Below are positions 16,871 to 29,033 of a stretch of 64,000 nucleotides of DNA, in pieces. The stretch spans positions 3,835-67,834 of the forward strand of contig JAJYYI010000127.1 of assembly GCA_021801125.1 (NCBI GenBank), written 5' to 3'. The notes beneath the pieces were generated by a model. That model worked only from the letters and a program-made list of their open reading frames with translations, was not told the DNA's origin and did not search any database. Every line of letters starts with the position of its first letter. Position 1 is the first letter of the stretch. Position numbers and translations under genes: made by a program. The stretch is from Deltaproteobacteria bacterium (lineage in GTDB: Bacteria; Desulfobacterota; Binatia; Binatales; Binataceae).

Positions 16871-19150
16871 ATGAGTGAGTCAAATATAGTGTTGCCCGCC
16901 CTAACCGGCGGGCAGGTAACAATTCTGTGGTTGGTATTACTGTCCGCGGTGATTGCGCTACTTTACGGGTTGCAACTGGTCAAAGTGGTGATGAGCGCAA
17001 GCGCGGGACCCAAATCGTTAACCGACGTTTCCGATGCCATCGAGGAAGGCGCCATGGCCTACCTTGCCCGCCAAGTCAGAACGATGCGTTGGTTTGTCTT
17101 GGCGATCACGGTTGGTCTTTTCATACTCTACCGACGGGTCTACCCTGGATTTGCCCTGCCATTCGGCATTTCGATTGCGTTCCTGATGGGCGTCAGCGCC
17201 TCGTACGGCGCCGGCTACGTCGGCATGTGGCTGGCGGTCAAGGGCAATGTGCGCAGCGCCAACGCCGCGCTGACCGGCTTTAAGGAGGCGATGGAGCTAG
17301 CGTTCAAGGCTGGCGGCGTCTCCGGCATGTTCACCGTCGGGCTTGGTCTTCTGGGCGCGACGATTATCTTCCTCATATTCCGCGAGAACGCGATGAAGGT
17401 GCTGGTCGGCTTCGGCTTTGGTGGCTCGCTCGCGGCGCTTTTCATGCGCGTAGGCGGCGGAATTTACACCAAAGCGGCCGACGTTGGCGGCGACCTCGTG
17501 GGCAAGGTCGAAGCGGGTATTCCCGAGGATGATCCGCGCAACGCGGCGACCATCGCTGACAACGTGGGCGACAACGTGGGCGACTGCGCCGGCATGGCCG
17601 CCGACGTGTTCGAGTCGTACGAGGTCACGCTGGTGGCAGCGATCATTCTGGCTGCTTACGCCATGAGCGAGCCCGACTTCGTAAAGATTTACGGCGCGGC
17701 TTCCGGGGCGTTCGCTATGAAGCTCGTGATCTTTGCGCTGGTGCTGCGCGCGGTCGGAGTCTTCTCGTCGATCTTGGGCATAATGGCGGTACGAGTACCC
17801 GCCGGCAGCACGATGATCGATCCGATGCGCCCGATCGTAAACGGATACGTGGTATCGGCGCTCGCCTCGATAGTCGGGTTCTTCATCGTCAACTACTTCT
17901 TCATCCAAGACCCGCGCACCGGCGGCACCGACTGGCGTTTTTCGGTGGTTGCAACCTTCGGCATCTTGCTCGCCGTGGCCACCCTATGGTTGACCAATTA
18001 CTTTACCCATCCTGATCGTCGCCCGACCACCGAGACCGCAACTTCGGCCAGAACCGGCGTGGCGACATTGATTCTCAGCGGCCTTGCCGAAGGTATGGAA
18101 GCTTCGGTGTGGGCGGTTCTAATGATTGCGGTCGCAATTATCGGCGCGATGGCGGTGTTTCACGAATCGCTTGCGCTTCAGTTCTACGGCATCGCCTTAA
18201 CCGGCTTGGGGCTTCTGACCACGACCGGTTTTATTCTGGCGATGGACACTTACGGACCGATCACCGACAACGCGCACGGTATCTTCGAGATGGGCGGAGT
18301 TCATCGCGAAGAGGCGTCGCGCACGCTCTCCTGGATGGACGCGATCGGCAACACGACCAAAGCGCTGACCAAGGGGCTGGCTATCGCCACCGCGGTTATC
18401 GCCGCCGTCTCGCTTTTCCGCTCCTTTATTGACGAGGCGCATCTGGGCGCCATCGGCGTGCAGGTGAACATGCCGACGGTGTTCGTCGGTCTGCTCATCG
18501 GCGGCGCCGTGCCGTTTCTGTTCAGCTCGTTCGCCCTCAAAGCGGTGGGTCGCGCGGCCTTCGGCGTTGTGGTTGAGGTGCGCCGCCAGTTCCGCGAGCA
18601 TCCCGGCATCATGGAGTACAAAGAGCGTCCCGACTATCGCCGCTGCGTAGACATTGTCACCGCCACGGCGCAGAAAGAGCTGCTCGGCCCTGGCATTCTG
18701 GCCATTTTCGCGCCCCTGTTGGTCGCCTTCGCGCTCGGTGTTGGAGCCCTGGGCGGCTTCCTCGGCGGTACGATTCTATGCGCGCAGCTGCTCGCCGTGT
18801 TCATGTCGGACGGCGGGGCCACCTGGGACAACGCGAAGAAGAAAATCGAAGACGGTTTTCTCGGCGGCAAGGGAACCGAGATTCATAAGGCCGCGGTGGT
18901 AGGTGACACCGTTGGCGACCCGTTCAAGGACACCGCGGGTCCCGCGCTGAACCCGATGATCAAGGTGATGAACCTCGTGGCGATCCTAGCCGCGCCCTTC
19001 GCGCCGAGCAGCGCCTCCGGGCTCACCTTCGGCCGCGTTCTGGTGGTCATTCTAAGCCTGGTCTTGCTGGCGATTGCGGTTGGGCTCTCCAAGCGGGGCT
19101 CCATTGTCGAGGCACAGGCTGGACAAAAAGGGACCGCCGAGGCCGCGTAG
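16871..19150 (+). CDS. hppA: Membrane-bound proton-translocating pyrophosphatase, K+-independent type.
   Basis: 759 aa polytopic protein. Motifs GGG(I/L)YTKAADVGADL(V)GKVE and DNVGDNVGD. GNTTKA (Lys rather than Ala) indicates K+ independence. Confidence 0.95.
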   Translation: MSESNIVLPALTGGQVTILWLVLLSAVIALLYGLQLVKVVMSASAGPKSLTDVSDAIEEGAMAYLARQVRTMRWFVLAITVGLFILYRRVYPGFALPFGISIAFLMGVSASYGAGYVGMWLAVKGNVRSANAALTGFKEAMELAFKAGGVSGMFTVGLGLLGATIIFLIFRENAMKVLVGFGFGGSLAALFMRVGGGIYTKAADVGGDLVGKVEAGIPEDDPRNAATIADNVGDNVGDCAGMAADVFESYEVTLVAAIILAAYAMSEPDFVKIYGAASGAFAMKLVIFALVLRAVGVFSSILGIMAVRVPAGSTMIDPMRPIVNGYVVSALASIVGFFIVNYFFIQDPRTGGTDWRFSVVATFGILLAVATLWLTNYFTHPDRRPTTETATSARTGVATLILSGLAEGMEASVWAVLMIAVAIIGAMAVFHESLALQFYGIALTGLGLLTTTGFILAMDTYGPITDNAHGIFEMGGVHREEASRTLSWMDAIGNTTKALTKGLAIATAVIAAVSLFRSFIDEAHLGAIGVQVNMPTVFVGLLIGGAVPFLFSSFALKAVGRAAFGVVVEVRRQFREHPGIMEYKERPDYRRCVDIVTATAQKELLGPGILAIFAPLLVAFALGVGALGGFLGGTILCAQLLAVFMSDGGATWDNAKKKIEDGFLGGKGTEIHKAAVVGDTVGDPFKDTAGPALNPMIKVMNLVAILAAPFAPSSASGLTFGRVLVVILSLVLLAIAVGLSKRGSIVEAQAGQKGTAEAA

Positions 19151-19197
19151 CTCCCGCAGCGTCGTTGCGGGAAGACTGTTCCCGCCCTTGACCACAA

Positions 19198-19239
19198 GCA
19201 GTTCCGCAGCGCTAGCTAAGGTTAGCGCTGCGGAACTGC
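19198..19239. terminator. Perfect 17-bp inverted repeat (GCAGTTCCGCAGCGCTA-gctaaggt-TAGCGCTGCGGAACTGC) between convergent genes. Probable bidirectional intrinsic terminator.
   Basis: Read directly. It overlaps the stop codon of the minus-strand ORF 19222..19581 and lies 48 nt after the hppA stop. A GATTTTG run follows on the plus strand. Confidence 0.45.
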
Positions 19240-19581
19240 CGCTGTAGACGCTGGATTTTGAGAGAAAGCCGCGCCTTGCGAAGCGGCCGAGGTACCGCTT
19301 TGGGGGTCGGCGCCGAGCCGCTGGCGTAGCATCTGTCGCTCGAACTCCGGACTGATACCTTCGCCGCGCGTCAGCTTCGCCCGGTCCTTCGGGCTCATTT
19401 GGGCCCATATGTAAGCGGCAGAGATTGCGTCCCCCCGGCTTACCGCGGAGTAGTACTGCTCTTGAGGCGTCGGACTATGATGAAACGGCCAGCATCCAGC
19501 CGCCACGAAGAGCATAGCCCCGGCGGCAAGCCGGCTGACAGCCGCAGACGCAAGGCTACGCGGTATGACGCTCCGTGTCAT
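19222..19581 (-). CDS. Hypothetical secreted protein or possible lipoprotein (119 aa).
   Basis: Signal-like N-terminus (LFVAAGC). I recognise no family. Confidence 0.4.
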   Translation of the reverse strand: MTRSVIPRSLASAAVSRLAAGAMLFVAAGCWPFHHSPTPQEQYYSAVSRGDAISAAYIWAQMSPKDRAKLTRGEGISPEFERQMLRQRLGADPQSGTSAASQGAAFSQNPASTAAVPQR

Positions 19582-19797
19582 AGCAGATATCGTCTCGCGG
19601 ACTTTGACAAAATAAAGCTCTAGCGTGAAACCTAGCCCGCGCTAAAGCCGCGCCCGAACATTGCGCCGTGTTAGGGCCGCGCGTCTGTATCCAGCCTCGG
19701 CAAGTGGCTCGCGCGCTCATCGGATCCCCGCATGCGGCGCATCGCCAGACTGCTCTTAGGGCACTTTGGACGCCCCGTGGACTTTTAAGCGCCCTCT

Positions 19798-20889
19798 ATG
19801 GCTGAAATAATAACCCTGATGCAATTGAGCAGCGAAAACGTAGCCGCTAAGGCCGAAGACATTCTGCGCCGTGTTCTTTATCCCGGCTACAACAGTGACA
19901 TAGTCAGCCTCGGCGTTGTAGAGGAGATAAAAGCGGCTCCTGAAGAAGGCGTTGTCGTTACGTTGCGCCACGCCGGCTTGCGAGAGGACACAATACAAGA
20001 AGTAGCACGCCAGGCGCGCCAGCTTCTCGTCACCGAGCTTGAGTTGCCGAAGGTCGAGGTGATGGTGCGCCGCCTTGATCCCGAATTAGGCGAGCGTACC
20101 GGACGCGTCGCCCTTGACGGTGTGCGTTACGTGGTCGCTGTGGCGAGCGGCAAGGGTGGCGTAGGCAAGTCCACGGTGGCAGCCAATTTGGCGGTCGCGC
20201 TCAGCCACCTCGGCTATCGTGTGGGACTGCTCGACGCGGACATCTACGGTCCGTCGATCCCGATGATGTTCGGCACCGGGTCGGCGCGCCCGCAGAGCGC
20301 CGGAGAGCAACGCTTTCACCCGGTGGAACGTCACGGCGTGGCGTTGATCTCGATCGGCATGTTTCTGACCAGCCGCGCGCCGGTCATCTGGCGCGGTCCG
20401 ATGGTAATGAGCGCTGTACAGCAGTTCCTCAAAGAGACGGTCTGGGGGTCACGGGACTTTCTGGTAGTGGATCTGCCGCCCGGCACCGGCGACGCCCAGT
20501 TGACCCTGGCGCAGCAGGTTTGCCTGGACGGCGCCGTGATAGTCACCACCCCGCAGGACGTGGCGCTGTTGGACGCTCATCGCGCGCTCAGGATGCTTCG
20601 ACAGGTGCACTGCCCATTGCTCGGCATCGTCGAAAACATGAGTTATTTCGTATGTCCGGACTGCGGCGAGATGGACGAGGTTTTCGGCCACGGCGGCGGC
20701 GAAAGGTTGGCGCGCAACGAAAATCTCAAGCTGCTCTCACGCCTACCGCTCTACGGCGAGGTTCGCGAGGCCGGTGATCGGGGCGTTCCTCTGGTTTCGG
20801 CACAACCCGAGCATCCGGTCAGCCGGGCATTCGCGGAGCTCGCGCGAGAGGTTGCAGCCCAGGTTGAAGGGCAGAGCCGGTATAGCTGA
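19798..20889 (+). CDS. apbC: Mrp/NBP35/ApbC family iron-sulfur cluster carrier ATPase with an N-terminal DUF59-like domain.
   Basis: VAVASGKGGVGKSTVAANLAVAL (deviant Walker A) and a C-terminal CPxC-like region (CPDCGEMDEVFG). Confidence 0.9.
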   Translation: MAEIITLMQLSSENVAAKAEDILRRVLYPGYNSDIVSLGVVEEIKAAPEEGVVVTLRHAGLREDTIQEVARQARQLLVTELELPKVEVMVRRLDPELGERTGRVALDGVRYVVAVASGKGGVGKSTVAANLAVALSHLGYRVGLLDADIYGPSIPMMFGTGSARPQSAGEQRFHPVERHGVALISIGMFLTSRAPVIWRGPMVMSAVQQFLKETVWGSRDFLVVDLPPGTGDAQLTLAQQVCLDGAVIVTTPQDVALLDAHRALRMLRQVHCPLLGIVENMSYFVCPDCGEMDEVFGHGGGERLARNENLKLLSRLPLYGEVREAGDRGVPLVSAQPEHPVSRAFAELAREVAAQVEGQSRYS

Positions 20890-21578
20890 CAATAAAACAA
20901 CGCCGTTATGCTGGCGCTTTCAACCTAGGTTTGCTTTCCTAATGAACTAGCTGTCCGCTTGAATGGATGGAGGGCCTTGAGTTAAGCCGGTCCGAATTCG
21001 ATCAGCCTGGGGGCTGAGAGGGGGACCGCTCGCCCGATGCGAAAGGTCGAACAAAGGTTGAGCGGGCGAGGGGGATCTCATCAACCCGAGCTACCCTTCG
21101 GATGCTTCAAGGTCCCGGCTGGTCGATGTCGGTGGGGTGCGAGAATATTGGGCAGGGTTGAACGCGCGGTCGCGGCTGCCGGGCGAAGCGCCCCAAGCTG
21201 CCCACGCCAAGGAGGGAGCGCACAGCGATTCGCGTTTTCGGGTGTAACGGTTCAATCGTGCGCGAGCTTGCCGCACCGTGTTCGGCGACCGCATGTGACT
21301 GGGCGATAGTCAACCACGGCGACAGGGCGCAAGCGAAAAGCAGAAAGCGAGAGGTGACAAGACAGGCGCCATTGCCAGGCGTTGCCACGCGATGAGCATA
21401 CGCCCACGCGTGGCAACGGACCCGGGTATAGTTACGACCCCCTAGCACCCTTTGCGCTGCCGGGAAAGGAAGGCCGACCTCGGTTCAACCCTTCTACCCG
21501 CACGCGGTCCGGCCTGTACGAGGAATCGGGGTCAGGAACTCGCAACAAGAGCTCCGGCTGAAGTTCCAGAGGTTCTTC

Positions 21579-22880
21579 ATGAAGGTTTTGGTTATCGGAG
21601 GAGACGGCTATCTTGGGTGGCCGCAGGTAATGCATCTATCCGCAAACGGGCATTACGTCGGTATCGTCGACAACTTTGTCCGCCGCGCCTTGGACGTGGA
21701 ATGCGGCACCGAAAGTTTAATACCCATCTACCCGCTGGAGACACGCATAGCCACCTGGGAGGAGATTTCCGGCAATCGTATAGAATCGTTTGTCGGCGAC
21801 ATTACGAATTTTGATTTCTTGACCAACGCCATCAGATCATTCGAGCCGGACGCGATCGTCCATTACGGCGAACAGCGAAGCGCGCCCTATTCGATGGTGA
21901 ACCACGACCACGCGCTCTTCACGCAAATCAACAACGTAGTTGGTACGCTGAATATCCTATACGCACTGAAGGAACATCGTCCGGAATGTCACCTCGTGAA
22001 GCTCGGGACGATGGGGGAGTACGGAACGCCGAACATAGATATTGAAGAAGGCTTTATCGAGATTTCTCACAATGGTCGCCGAGACGTCCTGCCCTATCCC
22101 AAGCAACCGGGCTCCTTTTATCATTTGTCCAAAGTCCACGACTCGCACAATATCATGTTTGCTTGCAGGGTCTGGGGGCTGCGTTCGACCGACCTCAATC
22201 AGGGAGTCGTCTATGGAGTGGAAACGCCGCAAACCGTCCTGGACGAACGGCTGGCCACCCGCTTCGATTACGACGGGATCTGGGGCACGGTGCTAAACCG
22301 TTATTGCGTCGAGGCGGTCATCCATCATCCGCTGACGGTTTTCGGCGAGGGCGAGCAAACGCGCGGCTTCCTGGATATACGGGATACGATGCGCTGCGTG
22401 GAACTTGCCATCCTCAATCCCCCCGCACTCGGAGAGTACCGCGTGTTCAACCAATTTACGGAACAGTTCACAGTCAGGGAACTCGCCGAGTTGGTTCGAC
22501 AAACGGCCCATAAGAAGGGACTCCCTGCCCGGATCGTCAGAGAAAAGAACCCCCGCGTCGAACAGGAAGTGCATTATTACAACGCCAAGCACGTCCGTTT
22601 GATTGATCTAGGCCTGGAGCCTCACTGCCTGACCGACACGTTGGTTGATTCGATGCTAGACAAGATCAGCGAGTACAAGCACCGCGTGCGCGTGGAAACG
22701 ATCCCGTCGCTCGTCAACTGGCGCATGACCAACAATCCGACGAGGTATATCGCTCCTTCCAGGCGACACGCTGAACAAGCTGCTGGCGCTAAGCTGCCTT
22801 CGGAAGGCGACCTCGGTTCGGTCGTATCTGCTCATCTGAGGAAACAGATCCTGAATTCTCGCGATGGGAAGGTTGGTTAA
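21579..22880 (+). CDS. sqdB: UDP-sulfoquinovose synthase (SQD1/SqdB).
   Basis: Near-colinear similarity to plant SQD1 that I recall: VLVIGGDGYLGW, FGEQRSAPYSM, HLVKLGTMGEYGTPNIDIEEGF, LPYPKQPGSFYHLSKVHDSHNI, DLNQGVVYGV, HPLTVFGEGEQTRGFLDIRDT, FRVFNQFTEQF, PRVEQEVHYYNAKH. Confidence 0.9.
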   Translation: MKVLVIGGDGYLGWPQVMHLSANGHYVGIVDNFVRRALDVECGTESLIPIYPLETRIATWEEISGNRIESFVGDITNFDFLTNAIRSFEPDAIVHYGEQRSAPYSMVNHDHALFTQINNVVGTLNILYALKEHRPECHLVKLGTMGEYGTPNIDIEEGFIEISHNGRRDVLPYPKQPGSFYHLSKVHDSHNIMFACRVWGLRSTDLNQGVVYGVETPQTVLDERLATRFDYDGIWGTVLNRYCVEAVIHHPLTVFGEGEQTRGFLDIRDTMRCVELAILNPPALGEYRVFNQFTEQFTVRELAELVRQTAHKKGLPARIVREKNPRVEQEVHYYNAKHVRLIDLGLEPHCLTDTLVDSMLDKISEYKHRVRVETIPSLVNWRMTNNPTRYIAPSRRHAEQAAGAKLPSEGDLGSVVSAHLRKQILNSRDGKVG

Positions 22881-23078
22881 TCGTCGCAAGGCTCACGCTA
22901 CGGGCATCGGGCGACGCAAAGGTTCCCATTCCTTTATGCACTGCGCAATCGGTGCGACTCCTTGTTTGACATTGGAAAGCTGCTCTTCCGTCCTCGCGTC
23001 GAGAGCGACGACGATCGGTTGGTTGATGAATTCCGTGCGGCACTATTCGAACGAAGTTCCGTCGCAATCCAAGTCTAA

Positions 23079-24236
23079 ATGGAACCCTTTCGCGAACTAA
23101 TCTTATTTTGCGTTTTCGTATCAACGATCTATTACGTGATAACGTGCATTACGGGCATTCTATTCGCCCGCCAAGCCGTTTCGCCCTTACCACCCCTTCC
23201 TGATCCGCCGCCTCACGCTCTCGTGCTTCGTCCGCTTCACGGCTACAGCGAAAATATGCTGTGTAACGCGCGCAGCCTTCTAGAGTTGGACTATCTGAAC
23301 AAAACGACCATTTTCGGAGCGACCTCAGAAAAGGACGGTTCAACACAGATCGTGAGGGCCCTGACGCAGGAGCAGCCGTCCGCCAACGTGATCGGAACCG
23401 TAGGCCAGGCGGAAGCGGGCAACCCCAAGATGGGCAAGCTCATTTCGATGCTGCGTGATGCACCGGACGCCGACGTGATCGTCATGCTTGACGCGGACGG
23501 GAGAGTTGCGCCGAACCTTCTTCGCCGCGTCATCGGCGAGCTCTACGAAGATGACGGCGTCGGCGCCGTGACCTGTATATTTTCCGGCACGCCCGGCAGG
23601 CGGGAGATAGGAGCGCATCTCGAGGCGCTTTTAATCAACACGGACTTTGCGCCGACGGCGATGCTGTCAAAATTCATCGAGCCCACCCGCTACGCCTTTG
23701 CCGCCTGCATCGCAATCAAGAGAAATGTGCTTCGCGCGATAGGCGGGATCGAAGCGCTCCGAGACAACTTCGGAGACGACATCGTCTTGGGTTACAAGGT
23801 TGCGGCGGCGGGCTATAGAGTCAGAATCTCGAACGCGCTGGTCACCACGATAACCGAGGAAAAAACTCTGGTCGACTTTCTGCGTCATCAAATCCGCAGT
23901 TGGCGCGTGGATCGCCGACTGCGTCCGATAAGCCTTGGACGAATCCTTATCAATGGATGCTTCTGGGCAGTGATGCTGCTGCTCTTTTCGGGGCTGCATG
24001 CGGGCTCGGTGACGCTGGCCGCGCTCGTCGTCGGCGTTCGGCTCGCCACCAGCATCGCCATCATCAGGAATGTGCTTGGGGTACCGCTGGAAAAAAGAGA
24101 CTTGTTTCTCATACCGTTTAAGGATCTGCTGATGGCCGGAGTTTGGGGGGCGAGCCTTTTCGGCAACACGGTGCGATGGAGCGGACGGCGTTTACGTTTG
24201 GGAGCGAACGGAAAGATGCAGCAGGTAGAGTGTTAG
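23079..24236 (+). CDS. Membrane glycosyltransferase, family 2 (GT21 / ceramide-glucosyltransferase-like, also HpnI-like).
   Basis: N-terminal TM segment, LRPLHG, the D-containing VMLDADG, a Q..RSWRV (QxxRW-like) motif and C-terminal TM helices. Same strand, 200 nt after sqdB. Confidence 0.75.
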   Translation: MEPFRELILFCVFVSTIYYVITCITGILFARQAVSPLPPLPDPPPHALVLRPLHGYSENMLCNARSLLELDYLNKTTIFGATSEKDGSTQIVRALTQEQPSANVIGTVGQAEAGNPKMGKLISMLRDAPDADVIVMLDADGRVAPNLLRRVIGELYEDDGVGAVTCIFSGTPGRREIGAHLEALLINTDFAPTAMLSKFIEPTRYAFAACIAIKRNVLRAIGGIEALRDNFGDDIVLGYKVAAAGYRVRISNALVTTITEEKTLVDFLRHQIRSWRVDRRLRPISLGRILINGCFWAVMLLLFSGLHAGSVTLAALVVGVRLATSIAIIRNVLGVPLEKRDLFLIPFKDLLMAGVWGASLFGNTVRWSGRRLRLGANGKMQQVEC

Positions 24237-24359
24237 GCGGCGCGATCCCCGGGACGCGTTGGCGCCGCGTTGTGAGCCTTTTAGCAGCCGACTCGATCGT
24301 GCGCGCTCAACGGAAACCTGAAAGCTCGCCACGTCTTCCATCTCTCAAGGCTGCGAACG

Positions 24360-24407
24360 CGCGCCCTAGAGGCGTTGCGAACGCCTCTAGGGCGCGGCTG
24401 GATTTTT
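24360..24407 (+). terminator. Perfect 17-bp palindrome CGCGCCCTAGAGGCGTT-gcg-AACGCCTCTAGGGCGCG followed by CTGGATTTTTG. Intrinsic terminator after the sqdB/GT2 unit.
   Basis: Read directly. It sits in the GT2-ferredoxin intergenic region. Confidence 0.55.
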
Positions 24408-24559
24408 GCGGCAAACGGAGGTCCGGCGCGGCGGTCTTGACTAACCATGCTGTCGCGGCTTCCAATTGCCCGTAGACACGACTCGAAGGCTCATCAAGGC
24501 GAGAGCCAGGTCGAAGATCGGCGGCGCTACGACCTGGCAAGCTTTGCAGGCGGTAGAGG

Positions 24560-24895
24560 ATGGCAACTTTAATTACTGAGGAGTGCATCAACTGCGGGGC
24601 GTGCGAGCGTGAATGCCCCAATCACGCAATCTACGAAGGCGGCAAGGCCTGGGAGCTGAACGGCGGCAGCGGAACGCCGCTTAAAGAGGACATCTACTAC
24701 ATAGTTCCCGACAAGTGCACCGAGTGCGTCGGCTTCTTCCCGCGCGAGCAGTGCGCCGTGGTTTGTCCGGTCGATTGTTGCGTGCCCGACCCCAACATTC
24801 CTGAGACGGAGGGCGTGTTGATCGAACGCGCGAAAACACTCCATCCGGAGCTGACCTTCGACGGCGATTTTCCTTCGCGCTTTCGTAAATCCTGA
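24560..24895 (+). CDS. 4Fe-4S dicluster ferredoxin (YfhL-like).
   Basis: CINCGACERECP and CTECVGFFPREQCAVVCPVDCC. Confidence 0.8.
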   Translation: MATLITEECINCGACERECPNHAIYEGGKAWELNGGSGTPLKEDIYYIVPDKCTECVGFFPREQCAVVCPVDCCVPDPNIPETEGVLIERAKTLHPELTFDGDFPSRFRKS

Positions 24896-25114
24896 ACGAA
24901 GCTCCGGATTGGCGCTGGAGTCGGTTGACCGCATCCTCAACCGATACCGTGCGCATCAAAATGCCGGAAGATGTTCGCGCCCGTGGCCACAAACGCTTGG
25001 CGACGCGCGGTCCGCGCAACCCGCGTCGAGCCCTTCGCAGCGGCGCGCCGTGGCGGCTCGATTCGCCCCACCCCTATGCGCGCGGCTTTGCTCCAGTGCC
25101 GGTCGCCACGTAAA

Positions 25115-26332
25115 ATGATTGCCGTGCGATTAAAGGACCGAACTATCGTGGTCGGCGTGACCGCGAGCATCGCCGCCTACAAGGCTGCGGAGTTGGTTCG
25201 CGTGCTCGTTGCGCGTGGCGCCAAAGTCAAGGTGATGATCACGCGAGGCGCCGCAGAGTTCATCGCGCCGCTCACGTTCCAAACGCTAAGCGGAAGCCCC
25301 GTCGCTTCCGACCTCTTCAGCCTTACTCAAGAGTCGGAAATAGGCCATATTCGACTGGCCGACATGGCCGACGCTATCGTTATCGCGCCGGCCAGCGCCG
25401 ATTTCATCGCCAAGGTCGCGCTGGGACTGGCTGATGACTTGCCGAGCACCGTGCTGCTCGCGACCCGATGTCCCGTCGCTTTCGCACCCGCGATGAACGT
25501 GCATATGTATCAGCACCCTGCGACGACCGAGAACTTAAATCGCCTGCGGGCTCGCGGCTGCGCGATTATCGAGCCCGAGCAAGGCTCGCTTGCTTGCGGA
25601 TACGAGGGAGTGGGACGGCTCGCTGAGCCAGCCGACATCGCCGACGAAGTCGAGCGCCTGGTCTGCGCGCGAGACCTGGCCGGCGAGCGCATATTGATCA
25701 CCGCCGGTCCCACGCAGGAGCCGATAGATCCGGTGCGCTTCGTATCTAATCGCTCGTCGGGCAAGATGGGATTCGCATTGGCGCGGGCCGCCTGGATGCG
25801 CGGCGCTGATGTGCGTCTGGTGGCAGGGCCTAGCGCGCAGCGCGCCGCGCGATCGGTCGAGCGGTTCGACGTGCGTCAAGCGAGCGAGATGCTGGATTTG
25901 ACGGCGCGAAACTTTCCTTGGTGCACCACGTTGATCATGGCTGCCGCGGTGGCTGATTTCCGCCCCACCAAGCCGGCTGCGCGAAAAATAAAAAAACGAG
26001 CTGACGGCCTGACGCTTACGCTGGAGCCGATCGCGGATGAGTTGCCTAATCTAGCCCAAAAAAAGGGCGCGCGGCTCATGGTGGGCTTCGCCGCCGAGAC
26101 CGACTCGTTGCGCGAAAACGCGCTTAAGAAACTGCGCGAAAAAAATCTCGACTTGATAGTAGGCAACGACGTGTCGCAGCAAGGCGCCGGCTTCGGCACA
26201 GACACTAATATCGTGACTATCACAGACCGCGAAGGGCTCACCGAGAATTATCCGATGATGTCTAAAGACGACGTCGCGCACGTAATCCTCGACTGGGTAG
26301 TTCGGATGCGTCGGGCTAGAGAAGGGCCGTAG
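25115..26332 (+). CDS. coaBC: Bifunctional phosphopantothenoylcysteine decarboxylase / phosphopantothenate-cysteine ligase.
   Basis: Conserved start [24 protein letters not shown] at 25115; the track ORF has a 48-aa extension. The flavoprotein N-domain and CoaB C-domain (GKMGFALA) are present. Confidence 0.9.
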
Positions 26333-26439
26333 GCGCCGGTTGCCTCGTCGTCGGCCTGAACGCGGCCATAGCCAACCGCTTCGCACGAAGCTTGCCGGCG
26401 TCAACGCGGCCGGTCGTTCCCACCCCTCGGAGGAATCGC

Positions 26440-27600
26440 ATGGGCAAGGTTGCCAGACATCTCGACACGCTCCTCGTACACGCCGGTGAGCCCTCCCCGC
26501 TCATCGAAGGCGCCGTCGGTATCCCGATCTTCCAGTCGTCGACTTACCAATACCGGGGCGAGTCGAGTCACGACACGGCTCGTTATGTGCGGCTTAGCAA
26601 CACTCCGAATCATATCGCGCTGCATCGCAAACTAGCCGCCGTCGAGAACGCTGAAGCGGCCCTCGTGACGGCTTCAGGGATGGCAGCGATTTCGACCACT
26701 CTGCTCGCGCTACTGCGTCCGGGCGATCATATCCTGGCGCAAGATTGTCTCTACGGCGGCACTCACGCCCTGATGTTCGCGGAGTTTCCGCGCTTGAACA
26801 TCGAAGTTGACCTTATCGATGGCGACGCCCCGACTTCGTGGGCGGCGCGAGTTAAGTCGAACACGCGGGCGATCTACGTGGAGACTATATCGAATCCGCT
26901 GATGCAGGTGCCCGACCTCAAGGCCGTTGCGAGTTTCGCGCGCGAACGACGACTGATTTCGATAATCGATAACACCTTCGCCAGCCCGGTTAACTTCCGC
27001 CCCGCAGAGCACGGCTTTGATCTTTCGCTGCATAGTGCCACAAAGTACCTTAACGGCCATTCAGACGTCGTCGCGGGCGCGGTCATCGGCCACGCGGCCC
27101 TGGTTGAGAGGATCAGTCACCTGCTGACTCGTCTCGGCGGCTCGCTCGATCCACATGCCTGTTTTCTGGTGCATCGCGGGATGAAGACGCTGGGCGTGCG
27201 CATGCGCCATCAAAATGAAGCTGCCCTGCGCATCGCGCGTTTTCTTGAGCAGCATCCAAAGGTGGCCACAGTGAACTATCCCGGGCTTGAGAACCACCCC
27301 CGCCATCAACGAGCACGCGAGCTTTTCGACGGTTTCGGCGGGATGCTTTCGTTCGAAATCAAAGGCGGCGTTGAAGTCGCCGATCGCTTTTTAAGCAAAT
27401 TGGCACTGCCCATCTGCGCACCCAGCCTGGGTGGCGTGGAGAGCCTTATCACGCGACCCGCGACCACCTCGCACGCGGCCATGCCCGAGGCGGACCGGCA
27501 GCGCGCCGGTATCACCAACAGCCTGATTCGCTTTTCGGTCGGCCTGGAAGCCGCGGAAGACCTAATTGACGACTTCGCGAAAGCCCTGGCCGCTTGCTGA
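26440..27600 (+). CDS. PLP-dependent transsulfuration enzyme (cystathionine gamma-synthase / beta-lyase / methionine gamma-lyase family).
   Basis: MGKVARHLDTLLVHAG...SATKYLNGHSDVVAG (PLP-binding Lys)...SLGGVESLI. GGAGG lies 7 nt upstream of the ATG at 26440. Confidence 0.8.
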   Translation: MGKVARHLDTLLVHAGEPSPLIEGAVGIPIFQSSTYQYRGESSHDTARYVRLSNTPNHIALHRKLAAVENAEAALVTASGMAAISTTLLALLRPGDHILAQDCLYGGTHALMFAEFPRLNIEVDLIDGDAPTSWAARVKSNTRAIYVETISNPLMQVPDLKAVASFARERRLISIIDNTFASPVNFRPAEHGFDLSLHSATKYLNGHSDVVAGAVIGHAALVERISHLLTRLGGSLDPHACFLVHRGMKTLGVRMRHQNEAALRIARFLEQHPKVATVNYPGLENHPRHQRARELFDGFGGMLSFEIKGGVEVADRFLSKLALPICAPSLGGVESLITRPATTSHAAMPEADRQRAGITNSLIRFSVGLEAAEDLIDDFAKALAAC

Positions 27601-27833
27601 TCAGAGGTCATCTAACGTTTCCTTACCTAGGCGGGCATCGGCCGATACACCTTCTCGTACCGTCGGCGAACCGCTATGCTTCGCAGCACAAGGCATCGCA
27701 TAGCCGCTCAAGGCGCACCGCCCGCGAGTCGCATCAAGCCGCTGAAGCCATTAAGCGGTTGCTCATTCCCGATCGGCCCGACGATTTTTTCGAAGCGTTG
27801 AATTAAAAATAAAGTACTAAGTCATTTGTGGGT

Positions 27834-29033
27834 ATGAAGATCGGGATCAATCTGTTAGGTCTGCGGCCGGCAATGATAGGCGGTGTGGAGACCTACATCC
27901 GCGGTCTTCTAGCAGGGTTGTGCCACGTCGACCATGATAACGAATACGTAATTTTTGCCAACCGCGACAACTATGCAACGTTTAGCGGCCTTGCCGAGAA
28001 CTTTCGGCTGGAACGATGCGAGTTCGCAGCGGGTTGGAGACCGTGGTCGCTATTTGTGACGCGTGTGCTAGGAGAACAGCTTTACCTCACTTGGCGCGCG
28101 GCGCGCGAGCAACTGGACGTGCTGCACTCCCCGCTGGACACGATCAGTCTGTTCGCCCCTTGCGCGACCGCGATGACGCTGCACGACATCAATTTCGACG
28201 CTGTTCCCGAGGCCACCACGGCCTTCCGCCGCCGGCTCGCTCGCATTTTGGTGAAGGCTTGCGCGCGCCACGCCACGGTTGTCTTAACCGTTAGCGAGTT
28301 CAGCCGGCGCGAGATTGTGCGCGAAATGGGCCTTGCGCCGGAACGCGTCAAGGTGACTTACAACGCTTCCGGAAGGGACAGGAGCGCCAGCGAGAATTAC
28401 TGGCCTGGATTGGCGCGCAAAATCAATCTGAGGCTGCCGTACATAATCGCTCTTAGTAGCCTTAACCCGCACAAGAATCTGGGCAGCCTGATCGCCGCCT
28501 TTGCCCGCCTGCGACCGGAGGGTCGTTGGCAATTGGTGGTAGTCGGCCATCTTCCGACGCGCGGCGTCTGCCTGCGTGAGTTGGCTCTCAGCTATGGGGT
28601 CGAACGCGCGGTGACCTTCACTGGCTACTTGAGCGACGGGGAACTGACTCTGGCGCTGAGGCACGCTCGGATGTTGGCATTCCCGTCGCTATACGAGGGA
28701 TTCGGCATACCGGTCATCGAGGCCATGAGCCTGGGAGTTCCGGTCGCGTGCTCGAACGCCGCAGCGCTGCCGGAAGTGACTGGCGGAGCGGCCCTGATGT
28801 TCAACCCGCGGGATCCCGCGGCAATCGCCTCGGCGATAAGCCGCCTGCTCACCGACGAGCGTCTGCGCGAGCGCCTGATCGCCGCCGGCTATAAGAACGC
28901 TCGACGCTTTTCCTGGTCGCGCACCTCCGAGCAAACGCTGGCCGCCTACCGCTACGCCTACGCGGCAAAAAATCGGCGCAGCCTACCTGTGGATCCTGCC
29001 GCTGCGCCAAGCCATCAGATGCAAGAACTGTGA
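27834..29033 (+). CDS. Glycosyltransferase family 4 (GT-B fold).
   Basis: EGFGIPVIEAMSLGVPV (E-x7-E motif region). An AT-rich promoter-like stretch lies upstream. Confidence 0.8.
   Translation: MKIGINLLGLRPAMIGGVETYIRGLLAGLCHVDHDNEYVIFANRDNYATFSGLAENFRLERCEFAAGWRPWSLFVTRVLGEQLYLTWRAAREQLDVLHSPLDTISLFAPCATAMTLHDINFDAVPEATTAFRRRLARILVKACARHATVVLTVSEFSRREIVREMGLAPERVKVTYNASGRDRSASENYWPGLARKINLRLPYIIALSSLNPHKNLGSLIAAFARLRPEGRWQLVVVGHLPTRGVCLRELALSYGVERAVTFTGYLSDGELTLALRHARMLAFPSLYEGFGIPVIEAMSLGVPVACSNAAALPEVTGGAALMFNPRDPAAIASAISRLLTDERLRERLIAAGYKNARRFSWSRTSEQTLAAYRYAYAAKNRRSLPVDPAAAPSHQMQEL

Follow-up and report, generated by a model that had tools for sequence, protein, structure and literature searches.

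A sqdB-GT21 gene pair in Binataceae genomes: a candidate sulfoquinovosyl transferase of HpnI descent with a possible hopanoid acceptor

We analyzed a 64,000-nucleotide stretch of contig JAJYYI010000127.1 (positions 3,835 to 67,834; hereafter the window) from assembly GCA_021801125.1, a metagenome-assembled genome (MAG) of the family Binataceae that is called G000 below (the window being G000:C125:3835-67834). Its subject here is a pair of genes, sqdB and a gene for a membrane glycosyltransferase of family GT21, which lie in a housekeeping locus ordered hppA-mrp-sqdB-GT21-fdx-coaBC-metC-GT4 (window 16871-29033; Table 1). An earlier note on this DNA had taken the GT21 gene for the only one co-oriented with sqdB; this was incorrect, as all genes from hppA to the GT4 gene are on the plus strand. 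What demarcates the pair is a leader free of open reading frames (ORFs) on one side and, on the other, the terminator that the note had pointed out, whose stem and T-run were confirmed at 24360-24396. The pair is also low in GC (sqdB, 0.548; pair, 0.55 to 0.57) relative to its flanks (0.61 to 0.62). The hairpin in the spacer between the two genes has a stem of only 7 bp and is a weak terminator-like structure; judged from the sequence, cotranscription across the spacer is plausible. No credible ORF was found in the leader, a simple scan of it gave no sigma-70-like promoter, and comparison with Rfam returned no match at E ≤ 1, on which basis a riboswitch or small RNA was rejected. The leader could not be aligned to the corresponding region of the congeneric MAG G030 (deposited as "Deltaproteobacteria bacterium FK3.bin127").

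Table 1. Features of the sqdB-GT21 unit in window coordinates
Feature	Position	Strand	Description
Leader without ORF, 690 nt	20890-21578	.	Between mrp/apbC and sqdB; upstream edge of the inserted two-gene cassette
sqdB	21579-22880	+	433 aa; UDP-sulfoquinovose synthase (SQD1/SqdB type)
sqdB-GT21 spacer, 198 bp	22881-23078	.	Weak hairpin at 22937-22956
GT21 (clade S, HpnI-derived lipid glycosyltransferase)	23079-24236	+	385 aa; proposed sulfoquinovosyl transferase
Intrinsic terminator	24360-24407	+	17-bp stem with 12 GC pairs, 3-nt loop, T-run; closes the sqdB-GT21 unit

By its orthology to SQD1, from which the reaction is assigned, the first gene encodes a true UDP-sulfoquinovose synthase, as the note had proposed. 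Its product matched Arabidopsis SQD1 (PDB 1QRR/1I24) at E = 2.6e-165 and 553 bits, with residues 2 to 387 aligned to residues 3 to 388 of 1QRR without a gap. T145, Y182, H183, and K186, which lie in the GTMGEYG and SFYHLSKVHDS blocks, are conserved between the two proteins; we take Thr145, Tyr182, and Lys186 to form the catalytic short-chain dehydrogenase/reductase triad of SQD1, together with His183. On the NCBIfam model NF041015, SqdB scored 490 bits, under the curated cutoff of 575. In a control run of this model two well-known genomes, Synechococcus elongatus and Sulfolobus acidocaldarius, gave matches at E ≤ 1e-40 and only one of the two passed the cutoff, which therefore looks too strict for at least one of them. 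A C-terminal tail of ∼45 residues (window 22741-22880) extends beyond the SQD1 homology, and the relatives carry tails of 20 to 60 residues that show no conservation.

The second gene encodes a polytopic transferase of the GT2/GT21 type, again in agreement with the note. The protein matched Pfam Glyco_transf_21 (PF13506) at 92 bits (cutoff, 21.7), and its best solved relative, aligned over the full length at E = 7.6e-12, was ceramide glucosyltransferase (UGCG), a member of the same family and fold at ∼20% identity. Its best NCBIfam match was HpnI (TIGR03472), at 226 bits under the cutoff of 310; the hpnJ-adjacent HpnI copy of the same genome likewise fell short of this cutoff (281 bits). The carotenoid glycosyltransferase CruG was rejected as its identity, with only 29 bits. 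An AlphaFold (AF2) model (pLDDT 88, pTM 0.87) gave membrane-embedded GT2 synthases as the top Foldseek matches. Hydropathy placed transmembrane segments at residues 3-31 (an N-terminal helix) and 283-358 (C-terminal helices), and the GT-A domain lies on the cytoplasmic side. Conservation of the N-terminal region across 11 homologues supports the start at 23079; this region is missing from P0001, the 326-aa gene call of the database, and the 385-aa form is the correct one.

Conserved residues of the GT21 protein are D86, D138-A-D140, D233-D234, and R273. Compared with UGCG, the protein keeps the D1, DXD, and D3 residues as well as the RW-motif Arg, and its motif Trp is shifted: the motif reads Q271-I-R-S274-W275, in which Ser274 aligns to W276 of human UGCG and the Trp follows one position later. 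In the motif that the note had called QxxRW-like, a Ser thus takes the place of the canonical Trp. All 11 proteins of the clade to which the window protein belongs (clade S) have Gly or Ser in place of the (Q/R)xxRW Trp. The Trp is retained in 28 of 28 canonical HpnI-like relatives and, among 150 listed family representatives, in 141 of the 148 whose sequence spans the motif. The column of this Trp was the only specificity-determining position common to all sqdB-adjacent proteins. The replacement is ruled out as a general signature of a sulfoquinovose donor, as a separate sqdB-linked GT21 lineage in Terriglobia keeps the Trp. Where structures of GT2 synthases have been solved, this Trp is in contact with the acceptor. 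The change could reflect either donor or acceptor, and we assign it to neither.

Searching 5.8 billion proteins for relatives of GT21, we found that the closest ones, P0002 (66% identity) and P0003 (64% identity), are encoded on soil metagenome contigs (L037 and L038) by operons in which sqdB, a gene for a GalE-like epimerase, and the GT21 gene are all co-oriented. One more contig has the order sqdB-epimerase-GT21, and in the related genome G028 sqdB and the epimerase gene are followed by hpnK, on the opposite strand, and a clade-S GT21 gene. A metagenome scan with the single GT21 protein found nothing, and one with a GT21 alignment found three loci, two of them already known. The arrangement in G030 is hppA-mrp-fdx-GT21-sqdB-coaBC-metC-GT4, so that the pair is reversed and sits between fdx and coaBC, one intergenic site away from its place between mrp and fdx in G000. 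The flanking genes of the two genomes are 75 to 93% identical, whereas the members of the pair are only 46% and 59% identical, and four genomes (G028, G018, G076, and G004) have an undisturbed mrp-fdx(-coaBC) arrangement. Given the similar flanks, the diverged and reversed pair, and the undisturbed locus in relatives, we infer two independent insertions: the pair was acquired as a unit at least twice, at neighboring intergenic sites of one locus.

The distribution across genomes points the same way. Of the 165 family genomes, four contain clade S (G000, G030, G028, and G018); all four carry sqdB, and the clade was found in no sampled genome without sqdB. The sqdB gene itself is present in 19 of 121 sampled family genomes. 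Each of the four has as many sqdB genes as GT21 genes of clade S (2:2, 2:2, 1:1, and 1:1), a correspondence that carries no P value because the genomes are kin and not independent. The family tallies take in the unpublished genomes G017, G042, G044, G058, G071, and G086, and those given below for the class Terriglobia take in G640, G654, and G671; none of the four clade-S genomes is among the unpublished ones. A 400-genome sample of the phylum contained no further close relative, and an exhaustive search of representatives yielded no further clade-S clusters, the clade being masked by Trp-retaining representatives at 50% identity. As four independent lines of evidence, the closest relatives, G028, G030, and the distribution in the family show that the pairing of sqdB with GT21 is not due to chance. 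The note had treated a lack of conserved adjacency as evidence against its proposal; adjacency is instead retained in the closest relatives.

An apparent loss of adjacency at ∼56% identity does not contradict this. The proteins concerned, P0004 and P0005, lie in the order RND-TetR-LTXXQ-GT21-PAP2 without sqdB. They have the same sequences as the C3-type proteins, the second paralogues in G000 and G030, and both genomes carry a second, unlinked sqdB. The C3-type protein of G000 (G000:C3, L016:8051-9211; also L001-L005, L020, and L074) is a third HpnI-like GT21 that is 57% identical to the window protein and belongs to clade S. Its context is constant, with RND-RND-TetR-LTXXQ-GT21 convergent with a PAP2-GT9-MFS operon, and the PAP2 phosphatase might provide diacylglycerol or have lipid A as its target. 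The second sqdB of G000 (G000:C32, L014:1-11030) is 70% identical to the first and lies in a cluster with genes for a histidine kinase, a sigma-54 response regulator, a CitMHS/ArsB-type anion permease, an Omp85-like protein, and a GalE-like epimerase. This cluster is syntenic in G030 (L019) and G028 (L017) and may represent a unit, under regulation, for sulfolipid or for sulfur uptake. The GalE-like epimerase gene also follows sqdB in the GT21 operons of L037 and L038 and in G078. The sqdB genes of clade-S genomes cluster together, apart from the cassette copy of G030.

Sulfoquinovosyl diacylglycerol (SQDG), the known sulfoquinovose lipid, is made only by GT4 (SqdX/SQD2) or GT8 (SqdD) enzymes (PMC13436972; bioRxiv 10.1101/2022.08.18.504050). 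No match to the GT8 family (PF01501) was found in the 96%-complete G000, and tblastn with Sinorhizobium meliloti SqdD gave no match there. The GT4 gene in the window (27828-29033) was ruled out as sqdX, having orthologues in 14 genomes without sqdB and being missing from G028. As proxies for SqdX we used the sqdB-adjacent GT4 proteins of G078 and of a Terriglobia genome, and neither had a convincing orthologue in G000: the best matches, at 42 to 46%, covered a C-terminal fragment at a contig end in a polysaccharide-type cluster, and three genomes that lack sqdB likewise contain the G078-type GT4. A canonical sqdX or sqdD elsewhere in the genome, which the note had named, together with use of UDP-glucose or hopanoid substrates by the GT2, as evidence against its proposal, was not found with these proxies and with S. 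meliloti SqdD, nor did any GT4 gene track sqdB. The gene that does accompany sqdB encodes a GT2/GT21 enzyme rather than a GT4 (GT-B, retaining) enzyme. On the strength of linkage, co-mobility, and copy-number covariation, we consider it likely that GT21 is a sulfoquinovosyl transferase that uses UDP-sulfoquinovose as its donor.

In trees computed with IQ-TREE (quick) and FastTree, clade S was nested within the HpnI-like radiation, as sister to a Terriglobia group with genes in GT21-HpnL-like-HpnK clusters; all five Terriglobia genomes with an hpnK-linked GT21 gene also carry sqdB, a count that rests partly on the unpublished genomes G123 and G125. Adjacent to these two groups in the tree is the hpnJ-adjacent HpnI group of the family, and the proteobacterial hpnI-hpnJ-hpnK enzymes lie further out. 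HpnK adjoins clade-S genes in G028 (249 bits) and G018 (242 bits; cutoff, 232.6), and at the window locus GT21 is unlinked to hpnJ or hpnK. G000 encodes squalene-hopene cyclase (SHC; 713 bits) and HpnH (387 bits), both above their cutoffs, and has the capacity to make C35 hopanoids. In a recent survey, HpnI domains were confined to genomes that have both SHC and HpnH (bioRxiv 10.1101/2025.07.29.667474). A separate, canonical hpnI-hpnJ pair is found at G000:C105, its HpnI being 41% identical to GT21, and each clade-S genome has one canonical hpnI, which adjoins hpnJ in G000 and G030. At G000:C105 (L015:7737-13556), hpnI-hpnJ is followed by a bestrophin-like gene and a gene for an ArnT-like GT-C (214 bits to ArnT). 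In G018 (L021:5068-9310), the clade-S GT21 gene is in an apparent operon with genes for a Wzi-like outer-membrane protein (PF14052) and HpnK.

An alternative is that GT21 is one more isozyme of HpnI, with UDP-GlcNAc or UDP-glucose as its donor; its link to sqdB would then reflect a shared envelope-remodeling island, and another enzyme elsewhere would transfer sulfoquinovose. HpnK is a deacetylase and implies a GlcNAc intermediate, and its proximity to clade-S genes in G028 and G018 speaks for such a role. Also in favor, sqdB of G018 is 100 kb from the clade-S GT21 gene, the C3-type copies of G000 and G030 have no linkage to sqdB, the 15 other sqdB-bearing genomes of the family have other neighbors (PF00535 GT2 genes or GT4), and one GT4 of G000 is truncated by a contig end. 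An isozyme would not, however, be expected from the double gain of the pair as a unit, in differing orders, at one locus, nor from the tight operons with sqdB in which the closest relatives lie. The 1:1 copy numbers in four genomes and the confinement of the clade to sampled genomes with sqdB also argue against it, as does the canonical hpnI that every clade-S genome already has. On balance we regard the isozyme explanation as clearly unlikely.

Returning to a sulfoquinovosyl transferase, we favor a hopanoid acceptor, because GT21 is nested in the HpnI lineage, its relatives lie beside hpnK or hpnL, and the genome is predicted to make C35 hopanoids. In the proposed pathway, SqdB would turn UDP-glucose together with sulfite into UDP-sulfoquinovose in the cytoplasm. 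GT21, as a diverged paralogue of HpnI, the bacteriohopanetetrol (BHT) N-acetylglucosaminyltransferase, would then move sulfoquinovose onto a side-chain hydroxyl of BHT, with its GT-A domain on the cytoplasmic face. GT2/GT21 enzymes invert, so a beta-sulfoquinovoside would be expected; the product would be beta-linked sulfoquinovosyl-BHT, an anionic composite hopanoid, and the separate hpnI-hpnJ pair would be retained for the cyclitol-ether branch. Family descent and the hpnK and hpnL neighbors within the clade make BHT the most likely acceptor in our ranking, followed by diacylglycerol or another lipid, although we hold BHT itself with less than even confidence. The whole scheme, a mobile two-gene module that makes a sulfoquinovosylated hopanoid (beta-sulfoquinovosyl-BHT), is put forward just as tentatively.

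Several observations weigh against this scheme. With respect to the acceptor, the loss of the motif Trp throughout clade S may mean that the acceptor has changed away from BHT, and the closest paralogue (C3 type) adjoins a PAP2 phosphatase, a possible pointer to diacylglycerol supply. With respect to the donor, the HpnK neighbors of clade-S genes in G028 and G018 would fit GlcNAc equally well. With respect to a canonical enzyme, one GT4 gene (G000:C40:38006-38465) is cut by a contig end and was thus not judged as sqdX, the comparison was made with GT4 proxies rather than bona fide SqdX, so that absence of SqdX from G000 is not proven, and the genome is a MAG at 96% completeness.

In an alternative reading, GT21 transfers sulfoquinovose to a non-hopanoid acceptor, such as diacylglycerol (giving a beta-linked isomer of SQDG), ceramide, or another membrane lipid. 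All of the evidence that couples sqdB to GT21 applies equally to this alternative, and the contrast between clade S and the relatives that keep the Trp suggests a changed acceptor site. A PAP2 phosphatase gene lies within 1.6 kb of the C3-type paralogue in every locus seen, and the fold is that of ceramide glucosyltransferase. Bacterial GT21 enzymes, for example Agrobacterium Pgt, glycosylate diacylglycerol; we liken GT21 to Pgt (Agrobacterium/Mesorhizobium) by family. PAP2 proteins have many roles, however, and the one at the C3-type locus is in an operon with GT9 and MFS genes; moreover, clade S lies inside hopanoid-associated GT21 lineages, two of its members being beside hpnK. A non-hopanoid acceptor therefore appears somewhat unlikely. 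The note's idea of a noncanonical sulfoquinovosyl transferase accordingly gains genomic evidence, whereas the ceramide and diacylglycerol acceptors that it named are less supported than a hopanoid.

The proposed system differs from each known one in a recognizable way. Its first enzyme is orthologous to that of the SqdB/SqdX (SQD1/SQD2) system of cyanobacteria and plants, and the two-gene logic of a synthase followed by a lipid glycosyltransferase is the same. In contrast to the retaining GT4 enzyme SqdX/SQD2, however, the transferase here would be an inverting, polytopic GT21. We expect it to form a beta-linked product whose acceptor is probably other than diacylglycerol, whereas the SQDG of plants and cyanobacteria is alpha-linked. 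In the SqdB-SqdD-SqdC/SqdA system of Rhodobacter and Sinorhizobium, SqdD (GT8) makes sulfoquinovosyl glycerol, which is acylated afterwards (bioRxiv 10.1101/2022.08.18.504050). As in the window, sqdB of S. meliloti is directly followed by a transferase gene; the two sqdB products are only 41% identical, and G000 yielded no GT8/SqdD homologue. With HpnI of the HpnI-HpnK-HpnJ composite-hopanoid pathway, GT21 shares architecture, length, the best family match, and a C35-hopanoid host. Unlike HpnI, it falls under the family cutoff, is linked to sqdB rather than hpnJ, has the motif Trp replaced, is present as a third paralogue in addition to the hpnI-hpnJ pair of G000, and has UDP-sulfoquinovose rather than UDP-GlcNAc as its predicted donor.

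If GT21 has this activity, sulfoquinovosyl transferases would comprise a third class with an evolutionary origin of its own, and the product, if it is beta-sulfoquinovosyl-BHT, would be the first sulfoquinovose lipid from an inverting GT21 and the first sulfonated composite hopanoid. The beta-linked product should resist alpha-specific sulfoquinovosidases and would then be an unrecognized source of sulfoquinovose in soils as well as a candidate lineage-specific lipid biomarker. A hopanoid acceptor would imply a new class of composite bacteriohopanepolyols (BHPs), which would matter both for membrane biology and for the use of BHP biomarkers in geochemistry. Full-text searches of one literature library returned no title or abstract on a GT21 sulfoquinovosyl transferase or a sulfoquinovosyl hopanoid.

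A link between sqdB and GT21 was also seen outside the family. Among 151 sampled Terriglobia genomes, 29 carry sqdB, and a GT21 gene lies within 3 kb of sqdB in 7 of 20 Terriglobia sqdB loci. These sqdB-linked proteins are 24 to 33% identical to the window protein and fall outside all HpnI-like proteins; since they form a separate deep lineage, the link must have arisen at least twice. Their loci contain GT-C and EamA-like genes that are absent beside the pair in G000: in L086 and L090 a PMT_2/ArnT-like GT-C gene directly adjoins the GT21 gene, and L095 encodes a small EamA-like protein.

This Terriglobia gene order, in which sqdB and GT21 are followed by the GT-C and EamA-like genes, suggests a further alternative for the window enzyme, namely that it loads sulfoquinovose on polyprenyl-phosphate, from which, once flipped, the sugar would be added to lipid A, a glycan, or protein by the logic of the Arn pathway. 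The ArnT-like GT-C gene near hpnI-hpnJ in G000 would fit such a route. No GT-C or small flippase gene is found near the pair in G000, G030, L037/L038, or G028, however, and the Terriglobia GT21 lineage is phylogenetically separate. In addition, GT21, HpnI, and UGCG enzymes glycosylate lipid hydroxyls, not polyprenyl phosphates. We therefore consider the polyprenyl route highly improbable.

Other sqdB genes have different partners. At five loci of the family (L023, L025, L026, L031, and L032), one or two PF00535 GT2 genes of the soluble type are convergent with sqdB, and a gene for a 334-aa protein without a Pfam match is divergent from it; these loci would represent a different, uncharacterized sulfoquinovose route. 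The mobilizable plasmid pPA12743CP of Pseudonocardia autotrophica (L064, 4663-10939) offers a further noncanonical setting, in which a sqdB gene whose product is 55% identical and a gene for a 416-aa "glycosyltransferase family 2" protein lie in divergent orientation. The product of the latter has no similarity to GT21 and was rejected as a relative. A cysteine synthase-family gene and an MFS transporter gene lie near this plasmid locus as well.

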